Source: Chloroflexota bacterium (GTDB lineage Bacteria > Chloroflexota > Dehalococcoidia > Lucifugimonadales > UBA3495). Taken from it: DNA of 64,000 nt. Positions 6,402-53,474 of the stretch are shown piece by piece; within the stretch, counting starts at the first letter, position 1, and each line of letters starts with the position of its first letter. The DNA is taken from the NCBI GenBank assembly GCA_028875655.1, contig JAPPCX010000067.1, forward strand, positions 10,019-74,018, given 5' to 3'. Both the position numbers and the translations under genes were made by a program. Under the pieces are notes generated by a model. It was given only the letters and a program-made list of their open reading frames with translations, searched no databases and was not told where the DNA came from.

Positions 6402-7247
6402 ATGGTGAATGCTTACGCGGACCTGGCGACGTTGAAATCGGCTTCGGTCTTGAACGCGCCCGATGACGCCCACGACGCTCGGCTGCTGACGCTGCTGGAG
6501 GCGGCGTCCCGCTGGATTGACGGCTACTGCGGCCGGCAGTTCGGCGCGATGCACGGCGAGCGTCGTTTTGACGGCACGGGCAAAGCGTCGCTGACGGTGC
6601 CCGACCTGGTAGCGGCCAGCGAAGTGCGCGTGCGGGAAGCGTCGGGCGAGTGGATCGGCTGGCCGGCGGCGGACTGGCTGCTGTATCCGCTGAACGCCGC
6701 GCCGACGGAACCGGGCGGCCGGCCTTATACGCGCATCATGCTGGCGTCGGGCGCGCATCGCCGGTTTCCGCTCAGCCGGGCCGGCGTGGTGGTGAGCGGA
6801 GTTTGGGGCTACGGCGACGTGCAGGAGGATACGGCTTTGCGGACGAGCGGAAACGCGGCGGTTGATGATGAAACGGTAACCGTGTCCATGCCCGGCGACG
6901 GCTTCGTTGCGCTGTCCGCCGGCCACACCATCCGCATCGACGACGAGCAGATGTACGTCTTTGGCGCAGCTGAGGATGGGCAGGGTGCATTGACGCTGGC
7001 GGTGCAGCGCAGAGTCAACGGGACGGAGCCATCGGCGCACGCCGCGGCGTCTGCAATCACTGTGTACCGGTACCCGAAAGGGGTATCGGAAGCGTGCCTG
7101 CTGCAGGCCGCCGTCTGGTGGCGCGAGAGGTTGGGTGGACCTTTCGTGCCGCCGGAGGGCGATGGGGGAGACGTTGGGGGCGTCTCCCCCACGGTTCGGA
7201 CGCTGCTGGCCCCGTACCGCCGCCGCCACGCCGTGCTGGGGGTGTGA
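6402..7247 (+). CDS. Phage head-tail connector (gp6-like/QLRG-type N-terminal domain) protein
   Basis: The N-terminus YADLATLKSASVLNAPDDAHDARLLTLLEAASRWIDGYCGRQF is typical of head-tail connector/DNA-packaging adaptor proteins. It sits right after the capsid gene. It is longer (281 aa) than the usual ~100 aa. Confidence 0.6.
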   Translation: MVNAYADLATLKSASVLNAPDDAHDARLLTLLEAASRWIDGYCGRQFGAMHGERRFDGTGKASLTVPDLVAASEVRVREASGEWIGWPAADWLLYPLNAAPTEPGGRPYTRIMLASGAHRRFPLSRAGVVVSGVWGYGDVQEDTALRTSGNAAVDDETVTVSMPGDGFVALSAGHTIRIDDEQMYVFGAAEDGQGALTLAVQRRVNGTEPSAHAAASAITVYRYPKGVSEACLLQAAVWWRERLGGPFVPPEGDGGDVGGVSPTVRTLLAPYRRRHAVLGV

Positions 7248-7249
7248 GC

Positions 7250-7678
7250 ATGACCGGATACGCCAGCGCCGGCTACAGCTACGTGGCGGTGGAGGACGCC
7301 GGCGGCGCGCTGCGGGACCTGTCGCCCTGGGTGGAGCGGGTCGGCCCGCTGGGGCGGGAGTTGGCGGCTCACGACGTTACCGGCGTGAACGACACGGCGG
7401 CGCGAACTGCGGCAGGGTCGGAGGTGGCCCAGGCGTTCACGTTGTCGGGGCGCTGGGACGATACACCGGGCATCGGGCCGGACGCCGTGCTGTCGGGCGT
7501 GGTAGGTCGCGCCGTGCGGGTGGAATACGGGCCGGCGGGCAACGCGCCGGGGCAGCGCCGGGTGTCGGGGAGGTTCGCGTGCCTGTCCTACCGCATCAGC
7601 AGCAAGACCGGCGAGCCGGTGCGGTTCGAGGCGACGTTCCGGCAGGACGGGCCGGTGGAGTTGGGGGTGTGGCCGTGA
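7250..7678 (+). CDS. Putative phage tail tube-like protein
   Basis: ATG at 7250, 3 nt after the previous stop. MTGYASAGYSYVAVEDAGGALRDLSPWVERVG...GRFACLSYRISSKTGEPVRFEATFRQDGPVELG. The call rests on size, position and a beta-rich pattern only. Confidence 0.45.
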   Translation: MTGYASAGYSYVAVEDAGGALRDLSPWVERVGPLGRELAAHDVTGVNDTAARTAAGSEVAQAFTLSGRWDDTPGIGPDAVLSGVVGRAVRVEYGPAGNAPGQRRVSGRFACLSYRISSKTGEPVRFEATFRQDGPVELGVWP

Positions 7679-41081: not shown

Positions 41082-43007
41082 ATGGAAGTGCAGGAAGTCA
41101 AGAATATCGTCAGCACCGCCCGCGACCTGCTGGTGGGCAAGGTGCCGCTCCCCGTGGACCAGTGCCAGGAAATTACGCGGGCGCTGATTTACAAGTTCCT
41201 CAGCGCCGAGGACGCCACCAGCGTTGATCTGGGCGGCGCACCCCGTTATTTCACCGGCCAACACGCTGAATGTCGTTGGGACGCCCTGATGAGCCCGGGG
41301 CAAACCGCCAACGAGGTGGACCGTCTCTACCGGGACGGCATGGCCTTGCTGGGCCGAGCCGACGTCATGCCGGCCATTCGCACCATCTACCAGGACGCCT
41401 ACATTCCCTATAGCGACCCGATAATTCTGCGCGACTTCCTGCGGGCCATTGACCGCTTTGACACCGACGACACCGAGAAAATCGGCGACGCCTACGAAAT
41501 GCTCCTGCAAGACCTGGGCGCCCAGGCGTCGGCCGGACAGTTCCGCACGCCCCGCCACGTCATCGACTTCATCGTCGCCGTCATCGACCCGCAGAAGCAC
41601 GAAACCATCCTGGACCCGGCCTGCGGCACCGGCGGTTTCCTGGCGTCCACGTGGGAATATATCAATCGAGCCGGCCGGCTGTCTGCCGCCGACCGGGGAA
41701 ACCTGGCCCGCAACCTGGTCGGCTACGACATCTCCCCCACCATGGCGATGCTGTCCACGGTTAACCTGTTCCTGCATCACCAGCAGCAGCCCGTGGTCAG
41801 CGTGTACGACACCCTGACCAGCGAGGAGCGTTGGAACGATCACTTTGACGTCATTCTGGCCAATCCGCCGTTCATGTCGCCCAAGGGCGGCATCCGACCT
41901 CACGGACGGTTTTTCAGCAACAGCAGACGTTCGGAAGTGCTGTTCGTGGATTACATCATGGGCCACCTGAACGAAGGCGGCCGGGCCGGCGTCATCGTGC
42001 CGGAGGGCGTCATCTTCCAGAGCCAGCGGGCGCATACGCAACTGCGCCGCCTGCTGGTGGAGACGGCGCTGGTGGCCGTAGTCTCGCTGCCGGCCGGCGT
42101 GTTCCAGCCCTATTCCGGCGTCAAGACCTCCATCCTGATCCTGGACAAAACGCTGGCCCGCCGCGCCGACGGCATCGCCTTCTTCAAGGCGGAAAACGAC
42201 GGCTACGACCTGGGCGCCCAACGCCGCCCCATCGACCGCAACGACCTGCCGGCGGTGCGGGCCGAGTTGTCCGAATACCTGCGGCGGCTGCGAGCCGGCG
42301 ACTCAGTTGACGACTTCGCGCCGGCGACGGGGCTGGTGGTGGCGAAGGAGCGGATTGCGGAGGGCGGCGACTACAACCTGAGCGGCGAGCGGTATCGGGA
42401 AAATGACAAAGTTTCAAACTGGCGGATGGTGCCGCTGAAAGAGGTAGCAAAGGAAATAAAGGCCGGCTTTGCTTGTGGTAAAGGCATCGTCAGCACTACG
42501 GGCATCCCGCATATCCGCCCCATGAATATATCGGAAAACGGACAATTTACATGGCAAGGGCTGAAGTGCATTACTGAGGAGGACTATGCCGGTAAGGAAA
42601 GCTATGCGCTCTTGCCGGGGGACGTGCTATTCAACAATACGAACAGCAAGGAACTGGTCGGTAAAACTTGCCACATAACCGAGTACATCGATGGGGGGTT
42701 CTCAAATCATATAACCAGGATTCGTGTCAATGACGAGCAATGTGATTCTGCATTTCTCGCGCATGTCCTCCATGCCGCATGGCGTAGTGGAACGTTCCAA
42801 GAACGGGCTAACAAATGGATTGGCCAAGCTGGGGTCAACACAAAGTCGTTGAGTGAGTTGCAGATACCTCTCCCGCCGCTGGAAGTGCAGCGCGAGATAG
42901 TGGCTGAGATTGAGGGGTATCAGCGGGCGATTGACGAGTCAAGGGAAAGCATCGTAGCATTAGAACGTAACATCGCAGACACGGTAGCACAGGTATGGCA
43001 CAGTTGA
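41082..43007 (+). CDS. hsdM: Type I R-M N6-adenine DNA methyltransferase fused to a single-TRD (half) specificity domain
   Basis: GQFRTPRHVIDFIV, DPACGTGGFL (motif I), ILANPPF (motif IV), GRAGVIVPEGV. After ~aa 440 there is a TRD (IPHIRPMNI...NNTNSKELVGK...SNHITRI) ending in the conserved HsdS helix LPPLEVQREIVAEIEGYQRAIDESRESIVALERNI. Confidence 0.85.
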   Translation: MEVQEVKNIVSTARDLLVGKVPLPVDQCQEITRALIYKFLSAEDATSVDLGGAPRYFTGQHAECRWDALMSPGQTANEVDRLYRDGMALLGRADVMPAIRTIYQDAYIPYSDPIILRDFLRAIDRFDTDDTEKIGDAYEMLLQDLGAQASAGQFRTPRHVIDFIVAVIDPQKHETILDPACGTGGFLASTWEYINRAGRLSAADRGNLARNLVGYDISPTMAMLSTVNLFLHHQQQPVVSVYDTLTSEERWNDHFDVILANPPFMSPKGGIRPHGRFFSNSRRSEVLFVDYIMGHLNEGGRAGVIVPEGVIFQSQRAHTQLRRLLVETALVAVVSLPAGVFQPYSGVKTSILILDKTLARRADGIAFFKAENDGYDLGAQRRPIDRNDLPAVRAELSEYLRRLRAGDSVDDFAPATGLVVAKERIAEGGDYNLSGERYRENDKVSNWRMVPLKEVAKEIKAGFACGKGIVSTTGIPHIRPMNISENGQFTWQGLKCITEEDYAGKESYALLPGDVLFNNTNSKELVGKTCHITEYIDGGFSNHITRIRVNDEQCDSAFLAHVLHAAWRSGTFQERANKWIGQAGVNTKSLSELQIPLPPLEVQREIVAEIEGYQRAIDESRESIVALERNIADTVAQVWHS

Positions 43008-48316: not shown

Positions 48317-48523
48317 ATGAAACTGATGATAACCATCGACCGCGACGAAGATGGCGTCTGGATCGTGGAATGCCCATCAATTCCCGGATGCGTCAGCCAG
48401 GGCGATACGAAAGACGAGGCCATCGCCAACATCCGGGAAGCCATTGCCCTCTGCATCGAAGTCCGCGCCGAACAGGGTCTGCCGCTAACCATCGAAACAC
48501 GGCAAGTTGAAGTCGTGTTGTAA
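48317..48523 (+). CDS. hicB: HicB-family antitoxin (UPF0150-like), orphan
   Basis: MKLMITIDRDEDGVWIVECPSIPGCVSQGDTKDEAIANIREAIALCIE. Its stop overlaps an ATG (TAATG) that opens only a short stub (MPQLPT...). Confidence 0.8.
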   Translation: MKLMITIDRDEDGVWIVECPSIPGCVSQGDTKDEAIANIREAIALCIEVRAEQGLPLTIETRQVEVVL

Positions 48524-48552: not shown

Positions 48553-49533
48553 CTACAAACCGATTGGCGTGATTCGGACGCCCCAATCGTCAGCAAGAGA
48601 TAGCAATAAACTTTCCGGCAGAATTTCGGGCCACTGTGCTTGCAGCACGAATTTATTGGTCTCCAATTGAGACAGTATGACAAATAATTCTGGTTGCCAA
48701 ACGAGGGGGTTTGCGTTGTCGTCTCCTATGCGTCGGCCGAGCAACATTTGTATCTTATCGCTGTTGTTTGCAATGAAGTTGTCTATTGTTGCACCGACTA
48801 CATCCATGGAATCAGATATAACGTGTTCCCCAAGAAAATCCAGCACCATCTCTGAGAGTTCGGCATCGTATTCTTGACCAACGAATCGTTGATGATGCGG
48901 TAGTAGGATATTGAGTAATTGTGCCCCAAAGGTTTTAGGCATCGCGTCCAATTCCCTACGAGCGCGCTCCACCTCTAGGTCAAATAGTTCCGTTAGGCTT
49001 ACCAAGCGGTGGTAAATCCGCTGAATTTCGGGCGGGAGAGCTTCGGCTGATTTGTAGGATAAATCGTGGGTGGTATCGGCCCACAAACTTTCTGACTTGG
49101 TCATTACTTGGATTTCGCATTCCAAATCCCTGATGGCCTTCGGTGCCCTGGGGTGCTTGACTTGGAAATGGGTTGCCCGGTAGCCAAATCTGTCTGGCTC
49201 AGTTGCTACACGTTTGTCATCTCGTTCGAGTACGCAGAATAAAGACGCGATCATCTCCTCCAGATCATTCCGTTCCCAGGGAAAGTCAACTACGACCCGG
49301 ACGCCCGCCTTGTCGCCGATTTCGTCATACGGATCTGCGTACTTTTTCGTGAGGGCCTTGGCGACTAAAGATCGGACTTCCTTAGCCCTGTGTTCAACGT
49401 TGCATTTGAACTTCTTATCTCGCGCAGACTCCTCGATGATTTGACCTATCTGGCGAGCTAACCGCAGGTAATATGGGCACTCCGCAATGTAGCGGCGGCG
49501 CAATCCGTCGATGTCGATGGGGGTGCTAACCAC
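48553..49533 (-). CDS. RelA/SpoT-homologue synthetase-domain protein (small alarmone synthetase/toxSAS-like) with a ~135-aa C-terminal domain of unknown function
   Basis: All five synthetase motifs are present: HRAKEVRSLVAKAL (RxKxxxSxxxK), DKAGVRVVV (DxxGxR), GYRATHFQV, ECEIQVMT (EIQ), WADTTHDLSYK. GTG start overlaps the upstream stop by 8 nt (GTGGTTAG). AT-rich. Confidence 0.8.
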   Translation of the reverse strand: MVSTPIDIDGLRRRYIAECPYYLRLARQIGQIIEESARDKKFKCNVEHRAKEVRSLVAKALTKKYADPYDEIGDKAGVRVVVDFPWERNDLEEMIASLFCVLERDDKRVATEPDRFGYRATHFQVKHPRAPKAIRDLECEIQVMTKSESLWADTTHDLSYKSAEALPPEIQRIYHRLVSLTELFDLEVERARRELDAMPKTFGAQLLNILLPHHQRFVGQEYDAELSEMVLDFLGEHVISDSMDVVGATIDNFIANNSDKIQMLLGRRIGDDNANPLVWQPELFVILSQLETNKFVLQAQWPEILPESLLLSLADDWGVRITPIGL

Positions 49534-50581
49534 GGCCTTTCACATTCGTCAGACGATCGGTAATAGAAACTTCCACTTGACCATCATCTGTTAGGTTTGT
49601 CTTAACTTTTTCATCAAATGCATCGAGAGTACCTATGACCGTGAGTCCGCTCGCTAGGGTCATCGAGACCTTTCTCAATTGGGTAGCGATTAAGCCAGTA
49701 TCTTTAGGGAAAACCGTGGTTGGTACGCCGCGTTCATCGATGTACTCCACAAAGTTTTGTCGGTCTTCCGCGTCCAAGTGTTCCGTTGCGAACAAGTCAG
49801 GATCAATGGCGTCCACGTTGCGCCTCAACTCTGTCAAAATGGCAACCATGTAATCCGTTTGTTTGCTTGGATTCGCAACTTCCGTATTTGTCCAGTCCTG
49901 CGCGGCCTCTAGAAAATTGAGAGTGACTGTGGCTGGGTCATCCTGTAAACGGCAACCCAAGAACTTACGCAGGAAAAAATCTGCTACTCTCGCCCCCATC
50001 CCGCTGGCGATTTGATTGTCTGACGCTATCCCCTCGATATCGCTTAAGTCTGTCCCGAATTGCGTGAATAATGCCGCTTTGAACACGCGGGTCTTGCCAG
50101 TCATCATCAAGTCTTGCAAGTGTTCTACGTCGAAGGTGGGTTCGCCTTGGTGGTTTATAGGAAGGGCCCTTGCCCCTTCTTCGTGCTCTAACTTGACAAT
50201 GGCTACTGCCTGTCGCCCGTTAGCATCAACCTCGGCAACTGCCAGTATCCCTGGCGCGTTGCTCTTGGTCTGTACTGCGTACAGGTGCTGGGCCATAATT
50301 TGCGAGTCGCCTATGAAGCGTAGGTTGCCCATTGTCGTGATATTCAGCACTAATCCCGGTACCACGGACGTACTCTGGACATCGAACGCGACAGGATAAG
50401 CTCCATTTATCAGGGTAGCGACAAGCTTTTGGCGGAAGTAATTTTTGGCCCGGCTGTTTAGAGGGCTCTCAATCCTGCTCAACGCCAAGGAATGACCGTC
50501 ATCAGCAGGCCCAGACGGGACGCTGTGAAAAATTATTCTGCCAAGATCTATCCGGCTTACGTCTATAACCATGGTTCTCAC
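49526..50581 (-). CDS. Nucleoid-associated protein YejK/NdpA-like (NA37 family)
   Basis: RIIFHSVP..., ...GILAVAEVDANGRQAVAIVKLEH..., and especially GARVADFFLRKFLGC, which I compare with E. coli YejK GRKVADFFMDFLGA recalled from memory. Start is GTG 50581 or ATG 50572. AT-rich. Confidence 0.7.
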   Translation of the reverse strand: MRTMVIDVSRIDLGRIIFHSVPSGPADDGHSLALSRIESPLNSRAKNYFRQKLVATLINGAYPVAFDVQSTSVVPGLVLNITTMGNLRFIGDSQIMAQHLYAVQTKSNAPGILAVAEVDANGRQAVAIVKLEHEEGARALPINHQGEPTFDVEHLQDLMMTGKTRVFKAALFTQFGTDLSDIEGIASDNQIASGMGARVADFFLRKFLGCRLQDDPATVTLNFLEAAQDWTNTEVANPSKQTDYMVAILTELRRNVDAIDPDLFATEHLDAEDRQNFVEYIDERGVPTTVFPKDTGLIATQLRKVSMTLASGLTVIGTLDAFDEKVKTNLTDDGQVEVSITDRLTNVKGRG

Positions 50582-51040
50582 TTGTTTCGTTACGTGGGAC
50601 AGGGGGGCGAGGCACCGACCGGGGTTCGAATCCCATCGTGACTACCGATCATGATTATAGGGTATCGGTGCGAGATTGAAAAATTGAAAATGCGATCGCA
50701 TTTCCCTACCCGCTAGTAAAAACAAATTCTCTTCGATCCCGCCCATCCCCGCAAATCCAAAATCCAATGACACCGCCCCCATTGCGCCTAACCTGCCAGC
50801 CGGCCTATCCTAGTATCGTCTAGGCAAAACGTACGTTTCATCCCAATCCCAGAGAGGCAGGATTCCCACATCAACGGCCAACCCCGTCAGTACCAAAATC
50901 GCAACCGGCCCAGGTGGCAACCGCCGCTCAAAGACCTGACTCCTAACCGGCATCGCCCCACTGGTGTCCCCGGGACAGCCCAGCCCGCGCGCAGGTGCAC
51001 CTTACGGCGTGCCGAGTACACGAAAAAGTAGGTCAAATAG

Positions 51041-51125
51041 TTGCGTACCCAACCCGGCCGTATGCTGACAACGATGCGGGAATCCTGCCTCTCGCCAACC
51101 AAACGCTCATCCTAAGCCTGTCGAA
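51041..51125 (-). repeat. Composite dispersed repeat, copy 2 (shortened, inverse of 1501..1660)
   Basis: ttgcgtacccaacccggccgtatgctgacaacgatgcg + ggaatcctgcctctcgcc + aaccaaacgctcatcctaagcctgtcgaa. This is the reverse complement of the three blocks of copy 1, without its two internal inserts. Confidence 0.7.
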
Positions 51126-51191: not shown

Positions 51192-51413
51192 ATGGTCCGA
51201 CAACTCACCGCGATCATCGAACGCGAAGACGATATGTACGTCGCCCTCTGCCCCGAGTTAGACATCGCCAGCCAGGGCTACACCGTCACCGAAGCCCGCG
51301 ACAACCTGAAAGAAGCGCTGGAGCTGTTTTTCGAGGTAGCTTCAGATGCTGAGGTCAAGGAGCGTCTGCACTCTGAGGTGTACGTGACGCAGGTGGAGGT
51401 TGCCGTTGGCTAG
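51192..51413 (+). CDS. hicB: HicB-family antitoxin
   Basis: MVRQLTAIIEREDDMYVALCPELDIASQGYTVTEARDNLKEALELFFE. Confidence 0.8.
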   Translation: MVRQLTAIIEREDDMYVALCPELDIASQGYTVTEARDNLKEALELFFEVASDAEVKERLHSEVYVTQVEVAVG

Positions 51414-51624
51414 GCTGCGCGTCATGTCTGGGCGCGAGGCTTGCGAGATACTAGCCGCGCATGGTTTCGCGGAGGTCAGACGTCGGAGCAGTCATATCAT
51501 CATGCAGAAATCGGAGGCTGGCCGCACCATCACGGTGCCAGTGCCCGACCACCGGGAATTGCGGATCGGAACCTTACAATCAATCATCCGACAATCTGAG
51601 CTTTCCAGGGTGCAGTTCGAGTAA
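51400..51624 (+). CDS. hicA: HicA-family mRNA interferase toxin
   Basis: (L)PLARLRVMSGREACEILAAHGFAEVRRRSSHIIMQKSEAGRTITVPVPDHRELRIGTLQSIIRQSEL. TTG start overlaps hicB. An alternative ATG lies at 51424. Confidence 0.8.
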   Translation: MPLARLRVMSGREACEILAAHGFAEVRRRSSHIIMQKSEAGRTITVPVPDHRELRIGTLQSIIRQSELSRVQFE

Positions 51625-52925: not shown

Positions 52926-53474
52926 ATGACCACAACCAAATTGATGACCGCTGATGAGCTTATATTGCTGCCCGATAACGGAATGCGGCAGGAGTTGGTG
53001 CGAGGAGAGTTGATTGAGATGCCCCCACCCGGCAAGGCGCACGGCGTAACGTCAACACGCTTTGGCGCTACCCTATTCAACTACGCCGACGCCAACGATT
53101 ATGGTACTGTCGGAGATAATCATGGCTATCGGTTGGAATCCAACCCCGACACCGTGCGCGCTCCTGACGTGGCTTGGTTTGCTCCAGGGCATCCGGCTGA
53201 ACAAACCGACGGTTATCCCGAGCGTGCCCCCGACCTGGTGGTGGAGATTAAATCACCCAGCGATTCGCCCCGAGATGTCGCGGAACGCGCTCAGATGTGG
53301 CTCGACTTCGGCGCGCAGGAGGTATGGTACGGCGACCCCCAAACCACCTCCGTAACCCGCTACCGTCCCGAACAGGAACCCGAAACCCTCAGCGAAGGCG
53401 ACATCCTCGACGGCGGCGACCTGCTCCCCGGTTTCAGCATCCCCGTTTGGCGACTCTTCCGCCGCCACCGCTAG
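52926..53474 (+). CDS. Uma2 family (DUF820) endonuclease
   Basis: MTADELILLPDNGMRQELVRGELIEMPP...VRAPDVAWF...APDLVVEIKSPSDSPRDVAERAQMWLDFGAQEVWYGDP. Confidence 0.85.
   Translation: MTTTKLMTADELILLPDNGMRQELVRGELIEMPPPGKAHGVTSTRFGATLFNYADANDYGTVGDNHGYRLESNPDTVRAPDVAWFAPGHPAEQTDGYPERAPDLVVEIKSPSDSPRDVAERAQMWLDFGAQEVWYGDPQTTSVTRYRPEQEPETLSEGDILDGGDLLPGFSIPVWRLFRRHR

Follow-up and report, generated by a model that had tools for sequence, protein, structure and literature searches.

A nucleoid-associated protein and alarmone synthetase gene pair in a Chloroflexota genome as a probable divergent type I PANGU defense operon

Why would a nucleoid-associated protein (NAP) be encoded in one tight operon with an alarmone synthetase? 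The question is raised by a 64,000-nucleotide stretch of a Chloroflexota bacterium genome (assembly GCA_028875655.1, contig JAPPCX010000067.1, positions 10,019 to 74,018; hereafter, the window), in which a gene for an NA37 protein overlaps a gene for a RelA/SpoT homologue (RSH). An original prediction, made by reading the raw sequence, proposed that this cassette is an undescribed toxin-antitoxin (TA) or defense module of the toxSAS type, in which a pyrophosphokinase effector is coupled with a partner that binds or senses DNA, in an abortive-infection logic. That logic has been shown experimentally for homologous pairs in a preprint of April 2026, which catalogues them as type I PANGU (Li et al., bioRxiv 10.64898/2026.04.06.716658). 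The window pair is not a new kind of system, and the claim of an undescribed pairing falls with this entry. What the reading of raw sequence alone did recover is a real and recent defense logic, in which a chromosome-bound sentinel for genome destruction is joined to an alarmone synthetase.

We put at roughly 0.7 the probability that the cassette is a divergent type I PANGU abortive-infection member, belonging to a separate deep clade and sharing the published mechanism by homology. The evidence gathered here consists of homology, the predicted three-part architecture of the RSH, its intact catalytic residues and acidic C-terminal domain, the coupling of the two genes, their conservation, co-divergence and mobility, and a defense-rich setting. 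From the characterized homologues, we infer DNA binding by the NAP, its release on genome degradation, activation of the RSH, a tetramer-to-heterotrimer switch, and the reaction product.

PANGU systems are bicistronic antiphage operons that have a YejK-like NAP at their core (Li et al., bioRxiv 10.64898/2026.04.06.716658). In type I, this NAP (Pag1A) is paired with Pag1B, a toxSAS of the GRel subfamily, and the methods of the preprint call the two genes NA37 and gRel; the term GRel, a subfamily name in the Atkinson/Hauryliuk RSH classification, does not occur in the main text of Jimmy et al. 2020. In Pag1B, a synthetase domain at the N-terminus is joined through a helical linker to a C-terminal (DMK) domain that is acidic and mimics DNA. 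According to the same preprint, which studied pairs from Ferrimonas futtsuensis (Ff) and P. aeruginosa (Pa), Pag1A, Pag1B, or both together are non-toxic. By itself, Pag1B is an inactive homotetramer; once a Pag1A dimer has docked on the DMK domain, at nanomolar affinity, the two proteins form an active 2:1 complex (PDB 9UFP; interface residues R258, R306, and H314 of Pag1B), and Pag1A is required for activity. The complex makes (pp)pGpp from ATP and GTP, GDP, or GMP and leaves tRNA unlabeled. Pag1A, whose DNA-contact residues are K200, R203, and K204, binds 400-bp and 1-kb DNA, fails to bind 200-bp fragments, and departs from the nucleoid once T4 nucleases degrade the chromosome. T4 escapes through mutations in denA (EndoII), and a DNA-binding-dead Pag1A renders the pair toxic. 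The preprint puts the spread of type I at more than five phyla.

The YejK domain is, independently, among newly validated defense domains (DefensePredictor). The NAP-RSH pair is absent from PADLOC-DB v2 (2023). The PADLOC candidate PDC-S33 was considered as a catalogue entry and rejected, because only positions ~46-175 of its 349-position model, the synthetase core, match; this match is common to the window RSH, to all PANGU-type RSHs, and to most non-PANGU RSHs tested.

The operon and its two proteins

The elements of the cassette are as follows, in window coordinates.

49526-50572, minus strand: NA37 gene (pag1A-like), 348 amino acids from the ATG at 50572; an alternative GTG at 50581 gives 351 amino acids
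48553-49533, minus strand: RSH gene (pag1B-like), 326 amino acids from a GTG start; RelA/SpoT-homologue small alarmone synthetase (SAS) with a C-terminal extension
49051-49512, minus strand: RSH residues 8-161, predicted synthetase (toxSYNTH-like) alpha/beta domain (model and Foldseek)
48943-49032, minus strand: RSH residues 168-197, predicted long alpha-helical linker (a single helix in the model)
48556-48942, minus strand: RSH residues 198-326, predicted acidic all-helical C-terminal domain (helices at 202-317 in the model)
49526-49533, minus strand: 8-nt stop/start overlap GTGGTTAG (direct reading)
49536-49540, minus strand: AAAGG Shine-Dalgarno-like motif, 3-7 nt 5' of the RSH GTG and within the NA37 coding sequence (direct reading)
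50654-50682, minus strand: sigma-70-like promoter candidate, TTTTCA, 17-nt spacer, TATAAT, with 10 of 12 consensus matches
50686-50705, no strand assigned: perfect 20-nt palindrome GGAAATGCGATCGCATTTTC, abutting the candidate -35 element

The positions of both open reading frames (ORFs), their overlap, and all the RSH and NA37 motifs quoted in the original prediction are present as it described them. Its length of 351 amino acids for the NA37 protein holds for the ORF and not for the start, because homologue alignment and an independent gene call (locus L120) favor the ATG at 50572, and thus 348 amino acids. A 279-amino acid version of the NA37 protein in databases is a gene-caller artefact, given that the ORF is intact in all copies.

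At the junction of the two genes, ...GGC CGT GGT TAG is read against GTG GTT AGC... in the +1 frame, and the overlap GTGGTTAG has the form of a translational coupling of the NA37 and RSH genes. In related loci, the NAP and RSH genes as a rule overlap by 1-8 nt or are separated by very short gaps. The AAAGG motif may serve as the ribosome-binding site of the RSH gene. A consensus scan placed the candidate promoter ~80 nt upstream of the NA37 start; sigma-70-like sites are no more frequent in this region than in shuffled sequence, so the promoter is a candidate only. The palindrome GGAAATGCGATCGCATTTTC may be an operator of the operon. Its embedded sequence GCGATCGC might have been a HIP1 signature, pointing to a cyanobacterial origin, but this idea was rejected because GCGATCGC is not enriched in the window (three sites versus four expected).

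The cassette has a GC content of 0.50 and a GC3 of 0.55, compared with 0.66-0.69 and 0.84-0.93 for housekeeping neighbors; the counts of 19 and 49 G+C that had been given for the sequence lines starting at 49561 and 47221 are exact. This composition is foreign, and horizontal acquisition of the cassette is supported. The locus is chromosomal, and its sequence is 99.8-100% identical across three independent metagenomes.

Searches against Pfam, which the original prediction had proposed as a check, place both proteins above the gathering cut-offs. The RSH scores 56 bits with RelA_SpoT (cut-off 27, E 5.6e-15) and the NA37 protein 51.6 bits with NA37 (cut-off 24.6, E 1.2e-13). The RSH contains HRAKEVRSLVAKAL (residue 48), DKAGVRVVV (74), GYRATHFQV (117), ECEIQVMT (138), and HDLSYK (156). 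The synthetase residues that are invariant in its family (R49, K51, S55, K59, D74, G77, the G-loop tyrosine Y118, H122, E140, and Q142) have one-to-one counterparts in a clade represented by an E. coli protein (R51, K53, S57, K61, D78, G81, Y129, H133, E156, and Q158). With all core residues present, the window RSH has an intact active site, as had been predicted.

An AlphaFold2 model of the RSH (pLDDT 89) has the three-part architecture listed above. In a Foldseek search, its synthetase domain superposes on B. subtilis SAS1 (5dec; TM 0.81 on the target, E 2e-8), which confirms the SAS fold for the predicted structure. The best sequence and fold matches, covering residues about 45-200, are RelQ/SAS1 and RelP/SAS2, both of which make (p)ppGpp. 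These are stand-alone housekeeping enzymes without a C-terminal domain and without a NAP partner, unlike the window RSH, which scores only 47.3 bits on the NCBIfam equivalog model for the GTP diphosphokinase YjbM (cut-off 320) and matches it in the catalytic core only, below what is expected of a stand-alone SAS.

The linker has invariant residues R176, L177, E182, F184, D185, and E187. The extra C-terminal domain that had been noticed in the sequence is real and comprises about 130 amino acids. It has a net charge of -12 and a pI of 4.28, among 20 aligned family members, of which the window protein is one, 19 have a net negative domain, and profile and fold searches returned no PDB or Pfam match for it. 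We presume that this is the NAP-binding DMK domain. The synthetase domain, by comparison, is near neutral (net charge -1, pI 6.5).

The NA37 protein has IIFH at residue 16 and GARVADFFLRKFLGC at residue 196; the latter had been compared with a YejK motif that was quoted exactly, in that E. coli K-12 YejK carries GRKVADFFMDFLGA. In the AlphaFold2 model of the window NAP (pLDDT 88.6), the YejK fold is confirmed at the level of prediction, because the sole significant PDB match in Foldseek is E. coli YejK (9be2; E 1.1e-9, 346 aligned columns). The two proteins have this fold and the VADFF..FLG motif in common. They differ in that YejK is encoded by a stand-alone chromosomal gene, whereas the window NAP is operon-linked, and in the residue that follows FLG. 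FLGC is near-invariant in both operon-linked NAP clades considered below (one aligned reference NAP has FLGL), and YejK has FLGA. The window NAP scores 19.7 bits on the NCBIfam YejK equivalog model (cut-off 341) and so does not classify as a housekeeping YejK/NdpA. Conversely, housekeeping YejK scores just 13-15 bits against either operon-linked NAP profile, compared with 71-205 bits for the two NAP clades mutually.

Kinship with type I PANGU and conservation of the pair

The preprint's operon rule asks for a NAP gene and an effector gene less than 40 bp apart; for the NAP, we asked for a match to an NdpA/NA37 (IPR007358) profile at E < 1e-10 and a length of at least 300 amino acids. The window genes lie on the same strand with an 8-nt overlap, and the NA37 protein reaches E 1.2e-13 at 348-351 amino acids with the Pfam profile. 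The active site is intact, with Y118 aligned with Y129 of the E. coli-type clade, and the SAS fold is predicted at a TM of 0.81. A linker and an acidic DMK-type C-terminal domain are present in comparison with proxies that stand in for Pag1B-Ff and Pag1B-Pa. Known defense genes lie within 10 kb of the operon, the distance used in the preprint.

The proxies for the tested PANGU proteins are encoded on an E. coli chromosome (L063), a Klebsiella IncFIB plasmid (L060), a C. botulinum plasmid (L064), and an Ochrobactrum plasmid (L065). At all four loci, a NAP gene is followed by an overlapping RelA/SpoT gene. A DUF4231 gene with weak SLATT/2TM-effector similarity precedes the E. coli (L063 5854-6300) and Klebsiella (L060 2340-2813) operons, and the invariant G-loop tyrosine of their RSHs is Y129, the same number as reported for Pag1B-Ff (bioRxiv 10.64898/2026.04.06.716658). 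Scans of this reference clade yielded 54 and then 189 relatives, and another scan yielded none; F. futtsuensis and P. aeruginosa are not among the loci kept. The NAP gene is upstream in 49 of 54 reference-clade loci, and the five exceptions include two that are cut by a contig end and two matches to the synthetase core only.

In hhalign comparisons, the full-length window-family RSH scores 99.6% against the Klebsiella NAP-linked RSH (E 1e-23), and the window-family NAP scores 99.8% against the Klebsiella operon-linked NAP (E 1e-28). For the C-terminal domain alone, the score is 91.7% with a set of four sequences and rises to 96.7% with an alignment of 54 E. coli-type sequences (E 3.5e-10, 106 co-linear columns), compared with 0.1% for mismatched-domain controls. 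The domain is thus homologous to its counterpart in NAP-linked RSHs of E. coli, Klebsiella, and Clostridium. HMM searches with only the C-terminal domain match the RSHs of the other clade and none of the NAP-less RSHs.

The window pair shares with type I PANGU a YejK-like NAP gene in first position and an overlapping RelA/SpoT synthetase gene in second, an RSH composed of synthetase domain, helical linker, and acidic C-terminal domain with the G-loop tyrosine and catalytic residues kept, and a mobile, defense-linked setting in which the NAP and RSH of the window clade co-diverge. It differs in belonging to a separate deep clade (cross-clade HMM scores of 44-93 bits versus 250-440 within the clade), in being found in Chloroflexota, Actinomycetota, Cyanobacteria, and related phyla instead of mostly in Pseudomonadota, and in its more acidic C-terminal domain (-12 versus -2 to -5 in the reference clade).

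Two other known systems are more distant. Type II PANGU, with a NAP (Pag2A) and a transmembrane effector (Pag2B), likewise relies on a NAP as its sensor, and its effector carries an acidic NAP-binding domain, but that effector is a membrane protein and not a nucleotide synthetase. The fused toxSAS TA protein CapRel(SJ46) resembles the window RSH in its RelA/SpoT toxSYNTH fold, regulatory C-terminal domain, and role in abortive infection, and its structure (7ztb) was matched weakly in profile and fold searches with the window RSH. However, CapRel consists of one polypeptide with autoinhibition in cis; a phage capsid protein triggers it, and it pyrophosphorylates tRNA. The window RSH would require a separate NAP partner, has an unrelated C-terminal domain, and would be expected to synthesize (pp)pGpp.

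Several observations weigh against an assignment to type I PANGU. When the synthetase domain is scored alone, NAP-less RSHs do as well on the window profile as PANGU-type RSHs do, and common origin with PANGU therefore rests on the C-terminal domain and the NAP partner. Identity to the E. coli-type proteins is only ~25% overall and ~19% in the C-terminal domain. The DUF4231/SLATT gene that precedes part of Cluster 1 in the preprint (bioRxiv 10.64898/2026.04.06.716658) is absent from the window and from the window-clade loci inspected, and we only infer that the E. coli and Klebsiella operons represent this cluster. In addition, the window NAP has Leu-Asn at 221-222, where many relatives of both clades have basic Lys-Arg/Gln (a T-T-K-R motif), and few basic residues occur in its loop preceding the VADFF helix. 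Because the basic pair is replaced and the loop is poor in basic residues, DNA binding by this NAP is only putative. The probable DNA-contact loop is also poorly conserved in the window clade and lies in a low-confidence region of the NAP model.

The pair is rare and patchily distributed. A word-indexed search of 5.8 billion clustered proteins found only 41 RSH and 50 NA37 homologues, many of them on equally sized contigs. Look-ups of relatives at 67%, 45%, 37%, and 34% identity revealed the NA37 gene immediately 5' of the RSH gene, overlapping or abutting it, and unrelated flanks that include BglII-type restriction-modification (R-M), OLD-TOPRIM with UvrD, Mrr, Abi_alpha, integrases, and transposases. 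A scan with one genome per species gave 53 loci, hosted by Dehalococcoidia and other Chloroflexota, filamentous Cyanobacteria, Solirubrobacterales, Streptomyces, Micromonospora, Armatimonadota, and Dormiibacterota. Overall, we have 58 window-clade loci from five phyla (Chloroflexota, Cyanobacteria, Actinomycetota, Armatimonadota, and Dormiibacterota). The NA37 gene is upstream on the same strand in 57 of the 58, which rules out adjacency by chance and bears out the tight operon of conserved neighbors that the original prediction called for; the exception (L057) matches the synthetase core only. As part of type I PANGU, this locus would extend the system to a deep clade of Dehalococcoidia and other Chloroflexota, Solirubrobacterales, Streptomyces, and filamentous cyanobacteria, and the clade offers natural sequence variation for mapping the NAP-effector interface.

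Pairwise NAP distances and RSH distances are correlated over 54 non-redundant loci (r = 0.96), as expected for co-divergence. The closest relatives (74-80% identity) are located amid insertion sequence (IS) elements and have differing flanks. Given the different flanks, the IS surroundings, and this correlation, the NAP and RSH genes move and evolve together as one unit. Direct repeats on either side of the cassette were considered as insertion scars and rejected, because they are short and resemble chance matches.

Some copies are disrupted. One copy of the operon is decayed, with its NAP gene split by a DDE transposase (L125 4271-6008). Another RSH has one in-frame stop on a contig of 2x coverage, which is possibly a sequencing error (L209 821-1807). 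An archaeal metagenome-assembled genome (MAG) of Methanomicrobiaceae carries a NAP gene followed by a fragmented RSH gene (L117 3025-4980).

Proposed mode of action and rival explanations

By analogy with the characterized pairs, the cassette would operate as follows. In healthy cells, the YejK-fold NAP would be bound to long chromosomal DNA, and the RSH alone would be catalytically silent, perhaps as the homotetramer found for the characterized homologue. When a phage degrades the host chromosome, the freed NAP would bind the acidic, DNA-like C-terminal domain of the RSH and convert it into an active NAP2:RSH1 complex. This complex would move pyrophosphate from ATP to GTP, GDP, or GMP, so that (pp)pGpp is made and ATP and GTP are drained; transcription and translation would stop, and the infection would be aborted.

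The original prediction pointed instead toward TA systems. A classical type II scheme would make the RSH a toxSAS with constitutive toxicity and would cast the NA37 protein as an antitoxin that is released or degraded on stress. The gene order, with a putative antitoxin first and an overlapping toxin second, suits such a scheme, as do the TA-rich surroundings (HicB, HicAB); moreover, all toxSAS enzymes studied before PANGU were TA toxins (bioRxiv 10.64898/2026.04.06.716658). In the characterized systems, however, neither protein nor the pair is toxic, the NAP is needed to activate the synthetase, and it is a Pag1A unable to bind DNA that makes the pair toxic. A DNA-clamping protein of 350 amino acids with a conserved YejK fold would also be an odd antitoxin, and searches of Pfam, NCBIfam, and PADLOC found no known toxSAS antitoxin domain (small alarmone hydrolase, Panacea/DUF4065, or small or fused cis-antitoxin), as had been suspected; the only partner is the NA37 protein. 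We therefore regard the TA explanation as quite improbable and probably wrong, and activation, not neutralization, as the likely mode of action. A different modification of the type I PANGU scheme would keep the NAP-sensor architecture and change either the chemistry, to (pp)pApp, another nucleotide, or an RNA target, or the trigger, to a cue other than bulk chromosome degradation, such as phage DNA mimics or nucleoid remodeling. The deep divergence from tested systems, host phyla whose phages are largely unknown, the differences of the window NAP at basic positions conserved elsewhere, and the varying acceptor specificity of RSH enzymes (Jimmy et al. 2020) leave some room for this idea, which we consider unlikely, because the synthetase core residues correspond one-to-one with those of the E. 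coli-type clade, the near-neutral synthetase domain does not suggest tRNA binding, and the best sequence and fold matches (SAS1/RelQ and RelP) make (p)ppGpp. The (p)ppApp synthesis or tRNA pyrophosphorylation raised in the original prediction is likewise not the expected chemistry, in view of this near-neutral domain and of the (pp)pGpp made by Pag1B with tRNA left unlabeled.

A circuit outside defense, in which a nucleoid protein tunes alarmone synthesis to the state of the chromosome, would agree with the nature of YejK-family proteins as abundant chromosomal NAPs and of SASs as stress enzymes, and with a chromosomal locus that is identical in three independent metagenomes. A housekeeping or stress role of this kind is very unlikely, considering the foreign composition, the patchy occurrence over five phyla with 41-50 homologues in 5.8 billion proteins, relatives amid IS elements, integrases, and R-M genes with some copies disrupted (L125, L209), and the failure of both equivalog models (YejK, 19.7 versus 341 bits; YjbM, 47 versus 320 bits). 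The foreign GC content and the decay of some relatives could also be read as signs that the cassette is an inactive relic of horizontal acquisition. To this we give almost no weight, since both ORFs are intact with every catalytic and family-invariant residue present, identity across independent samples is 99.8-100%, and a promoter-like site and the coupled start are kept. A defense operon of the type I PANGU kind, activated by its NAP, remains the preferred reading.

Free-standing copies of the C-terminal domain and neighboring genes

When the C-terminal domain was run through an exhaustive phmmer search of 1.84 billion representatives, only 143 proteins matched. Approximately two-thirds of these are RSHs of roughly 320 amino acids and a third are short, some of the short ones being truncated RSHs. 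For example, P0097 was considered as a stand-alone domain beside 7-deazaguanine genes and rejected, because it is part of a NAP-RSH operon that is interrupted by one in-frame stop, on a contig of 2x coverage. Three others are genuinely free-standing. These proteins have 121-141 amino acids and a net charge of -11 to -12, keep the NP.IWQPE...LE..F.L..W..LP motif, and are 27-38% identical to the window domain, with no NAP and no synthetase domain within 10 kb. In locus coordinates, their genes are

P0092, on L207, L208, and L210 (L210 10001-10423): 32-kb contig, with a second copy on a 542-kb contig
P0104, on L212, 10001-10366: 65-kb contig
P0095, on L211, 10001-10426: 433-kb contig with a "_c" name tag (possibly circular)

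Around them, small genes are densely packed in arrays of 31-42% GC; most of these genes have no Pfam match, and all or most lie on one strand. Neighbors include a three-gene tRNA-Ser array, a tRNA synthetase, RtcB, RNase H, DHH phosphoesterase, ART-PolyVal, MazG, DNA methyltransferases, HNH, and an integrase, and several match PHROG families. In gene content, these arrays look like huge phages. The 20-kb views around the free-standing copies contain no phage structural genes, and viral origin was not corroborated by searches of GenBank phages (INPHARED), PHROGs, and IMG/VR, in which the domain itself is unmatched.

In addition, seven window-clade loci on six distinct contigs have an extra free-standing domain gene beside the operon (E 5e-19 to 2e-10). 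Five of the seven, on four distinct contigs, are from Solirubrobacterales. The extra gene is directly downstream of the RSH gene, except in L029, where it is upstream of the NAP gene. The copies are

L021, 6969-7367
L020, 6966-7349
L017, 7013-7462
L029, 4266-4874 (upstream of the NAP gene)
L040, about 7000-7415
L004, 9043-9492, and L016, 6989-7438 (on one shared contig)

The PANGU preprint (bioRxiv 10.64898/2026.04.06.716658) does not mention a third component of this kind, and the window operon has no adjacent free-standing copy. Only tentatively, and with more doubt than confidence, we raise the possibility that the window pair represents a distinct NAP-sensor defense subtype of Chloroflexota, Actinomycetota, and Cyanobacteria, whose NAP-binding domain has also been captured as a free-standing gene. 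We hypothesize that the free-standing copies act as anti-PANGU decoys or as buffers. If they soak up released NAP, phage copies would be the first anti-PANGU decoys, and those on chromosomes would serve as built-in buffers, setting the threshold at which the system fires. Phage counter-defense against PANGU is listed as an open question in the same preprint, and the free-standing copies are a concrete lead toward it.

The window contains no Rfam match and no tRNA. The following genes and elements surround the cassette.

41082-43007, plus strand: type I N6-adenine DNA methyltransferase-specificity (HsdS-like) fusion, 641 amino acids; PADLOC MTase_I, 304 bits
43638-44033, plus strand: PD-(D/E)XK_3 (GxxExxY-type) protein
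48317-48523, plus strand: orphan HicB-like antitoxin gene, convergent with the RSH gene, 29 nt from the RSH stop, with no adjacent HicA
50852-51093: MITE-like 242-nt element with 21-nt terminal inverted repeats (20 of 21 complementary) and a fold z-score of -4.6
51192-51624: HicB/HicA pair, with HicB divergent from the NA37 gene
52926-53474, plus strand: Uma2-family endonuclease; PADLOC candidate PDC-S03, 55 bits
56461-58164, minus strand: AAA_15/AAA_21 ATPase like AriA, NsnB, and GajA, 567 amino acids

Both hic loci that had been noted as flanking the cassette are thus present, and the arrangement with an orphan HicB recurs in three independent metagenome contigs (L120-L122). The MITE-like element occupies part of the 610-nt gap between the NA37 and HicB genes and occurs once in the window. 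The methyltransferase-specificity fusion is 5.5 kb from the cassette, and its 3' part is in a low-GC islet. The AriA/GajA-like ATPase, at a distance of 5.9 kb, is located in another such islet (56.2-57.8 kb). Because the Uma2 and PD-(D/E)XK_3 genes are also lower in GC than the housekeeping genes, the window contains several small foreign islets.

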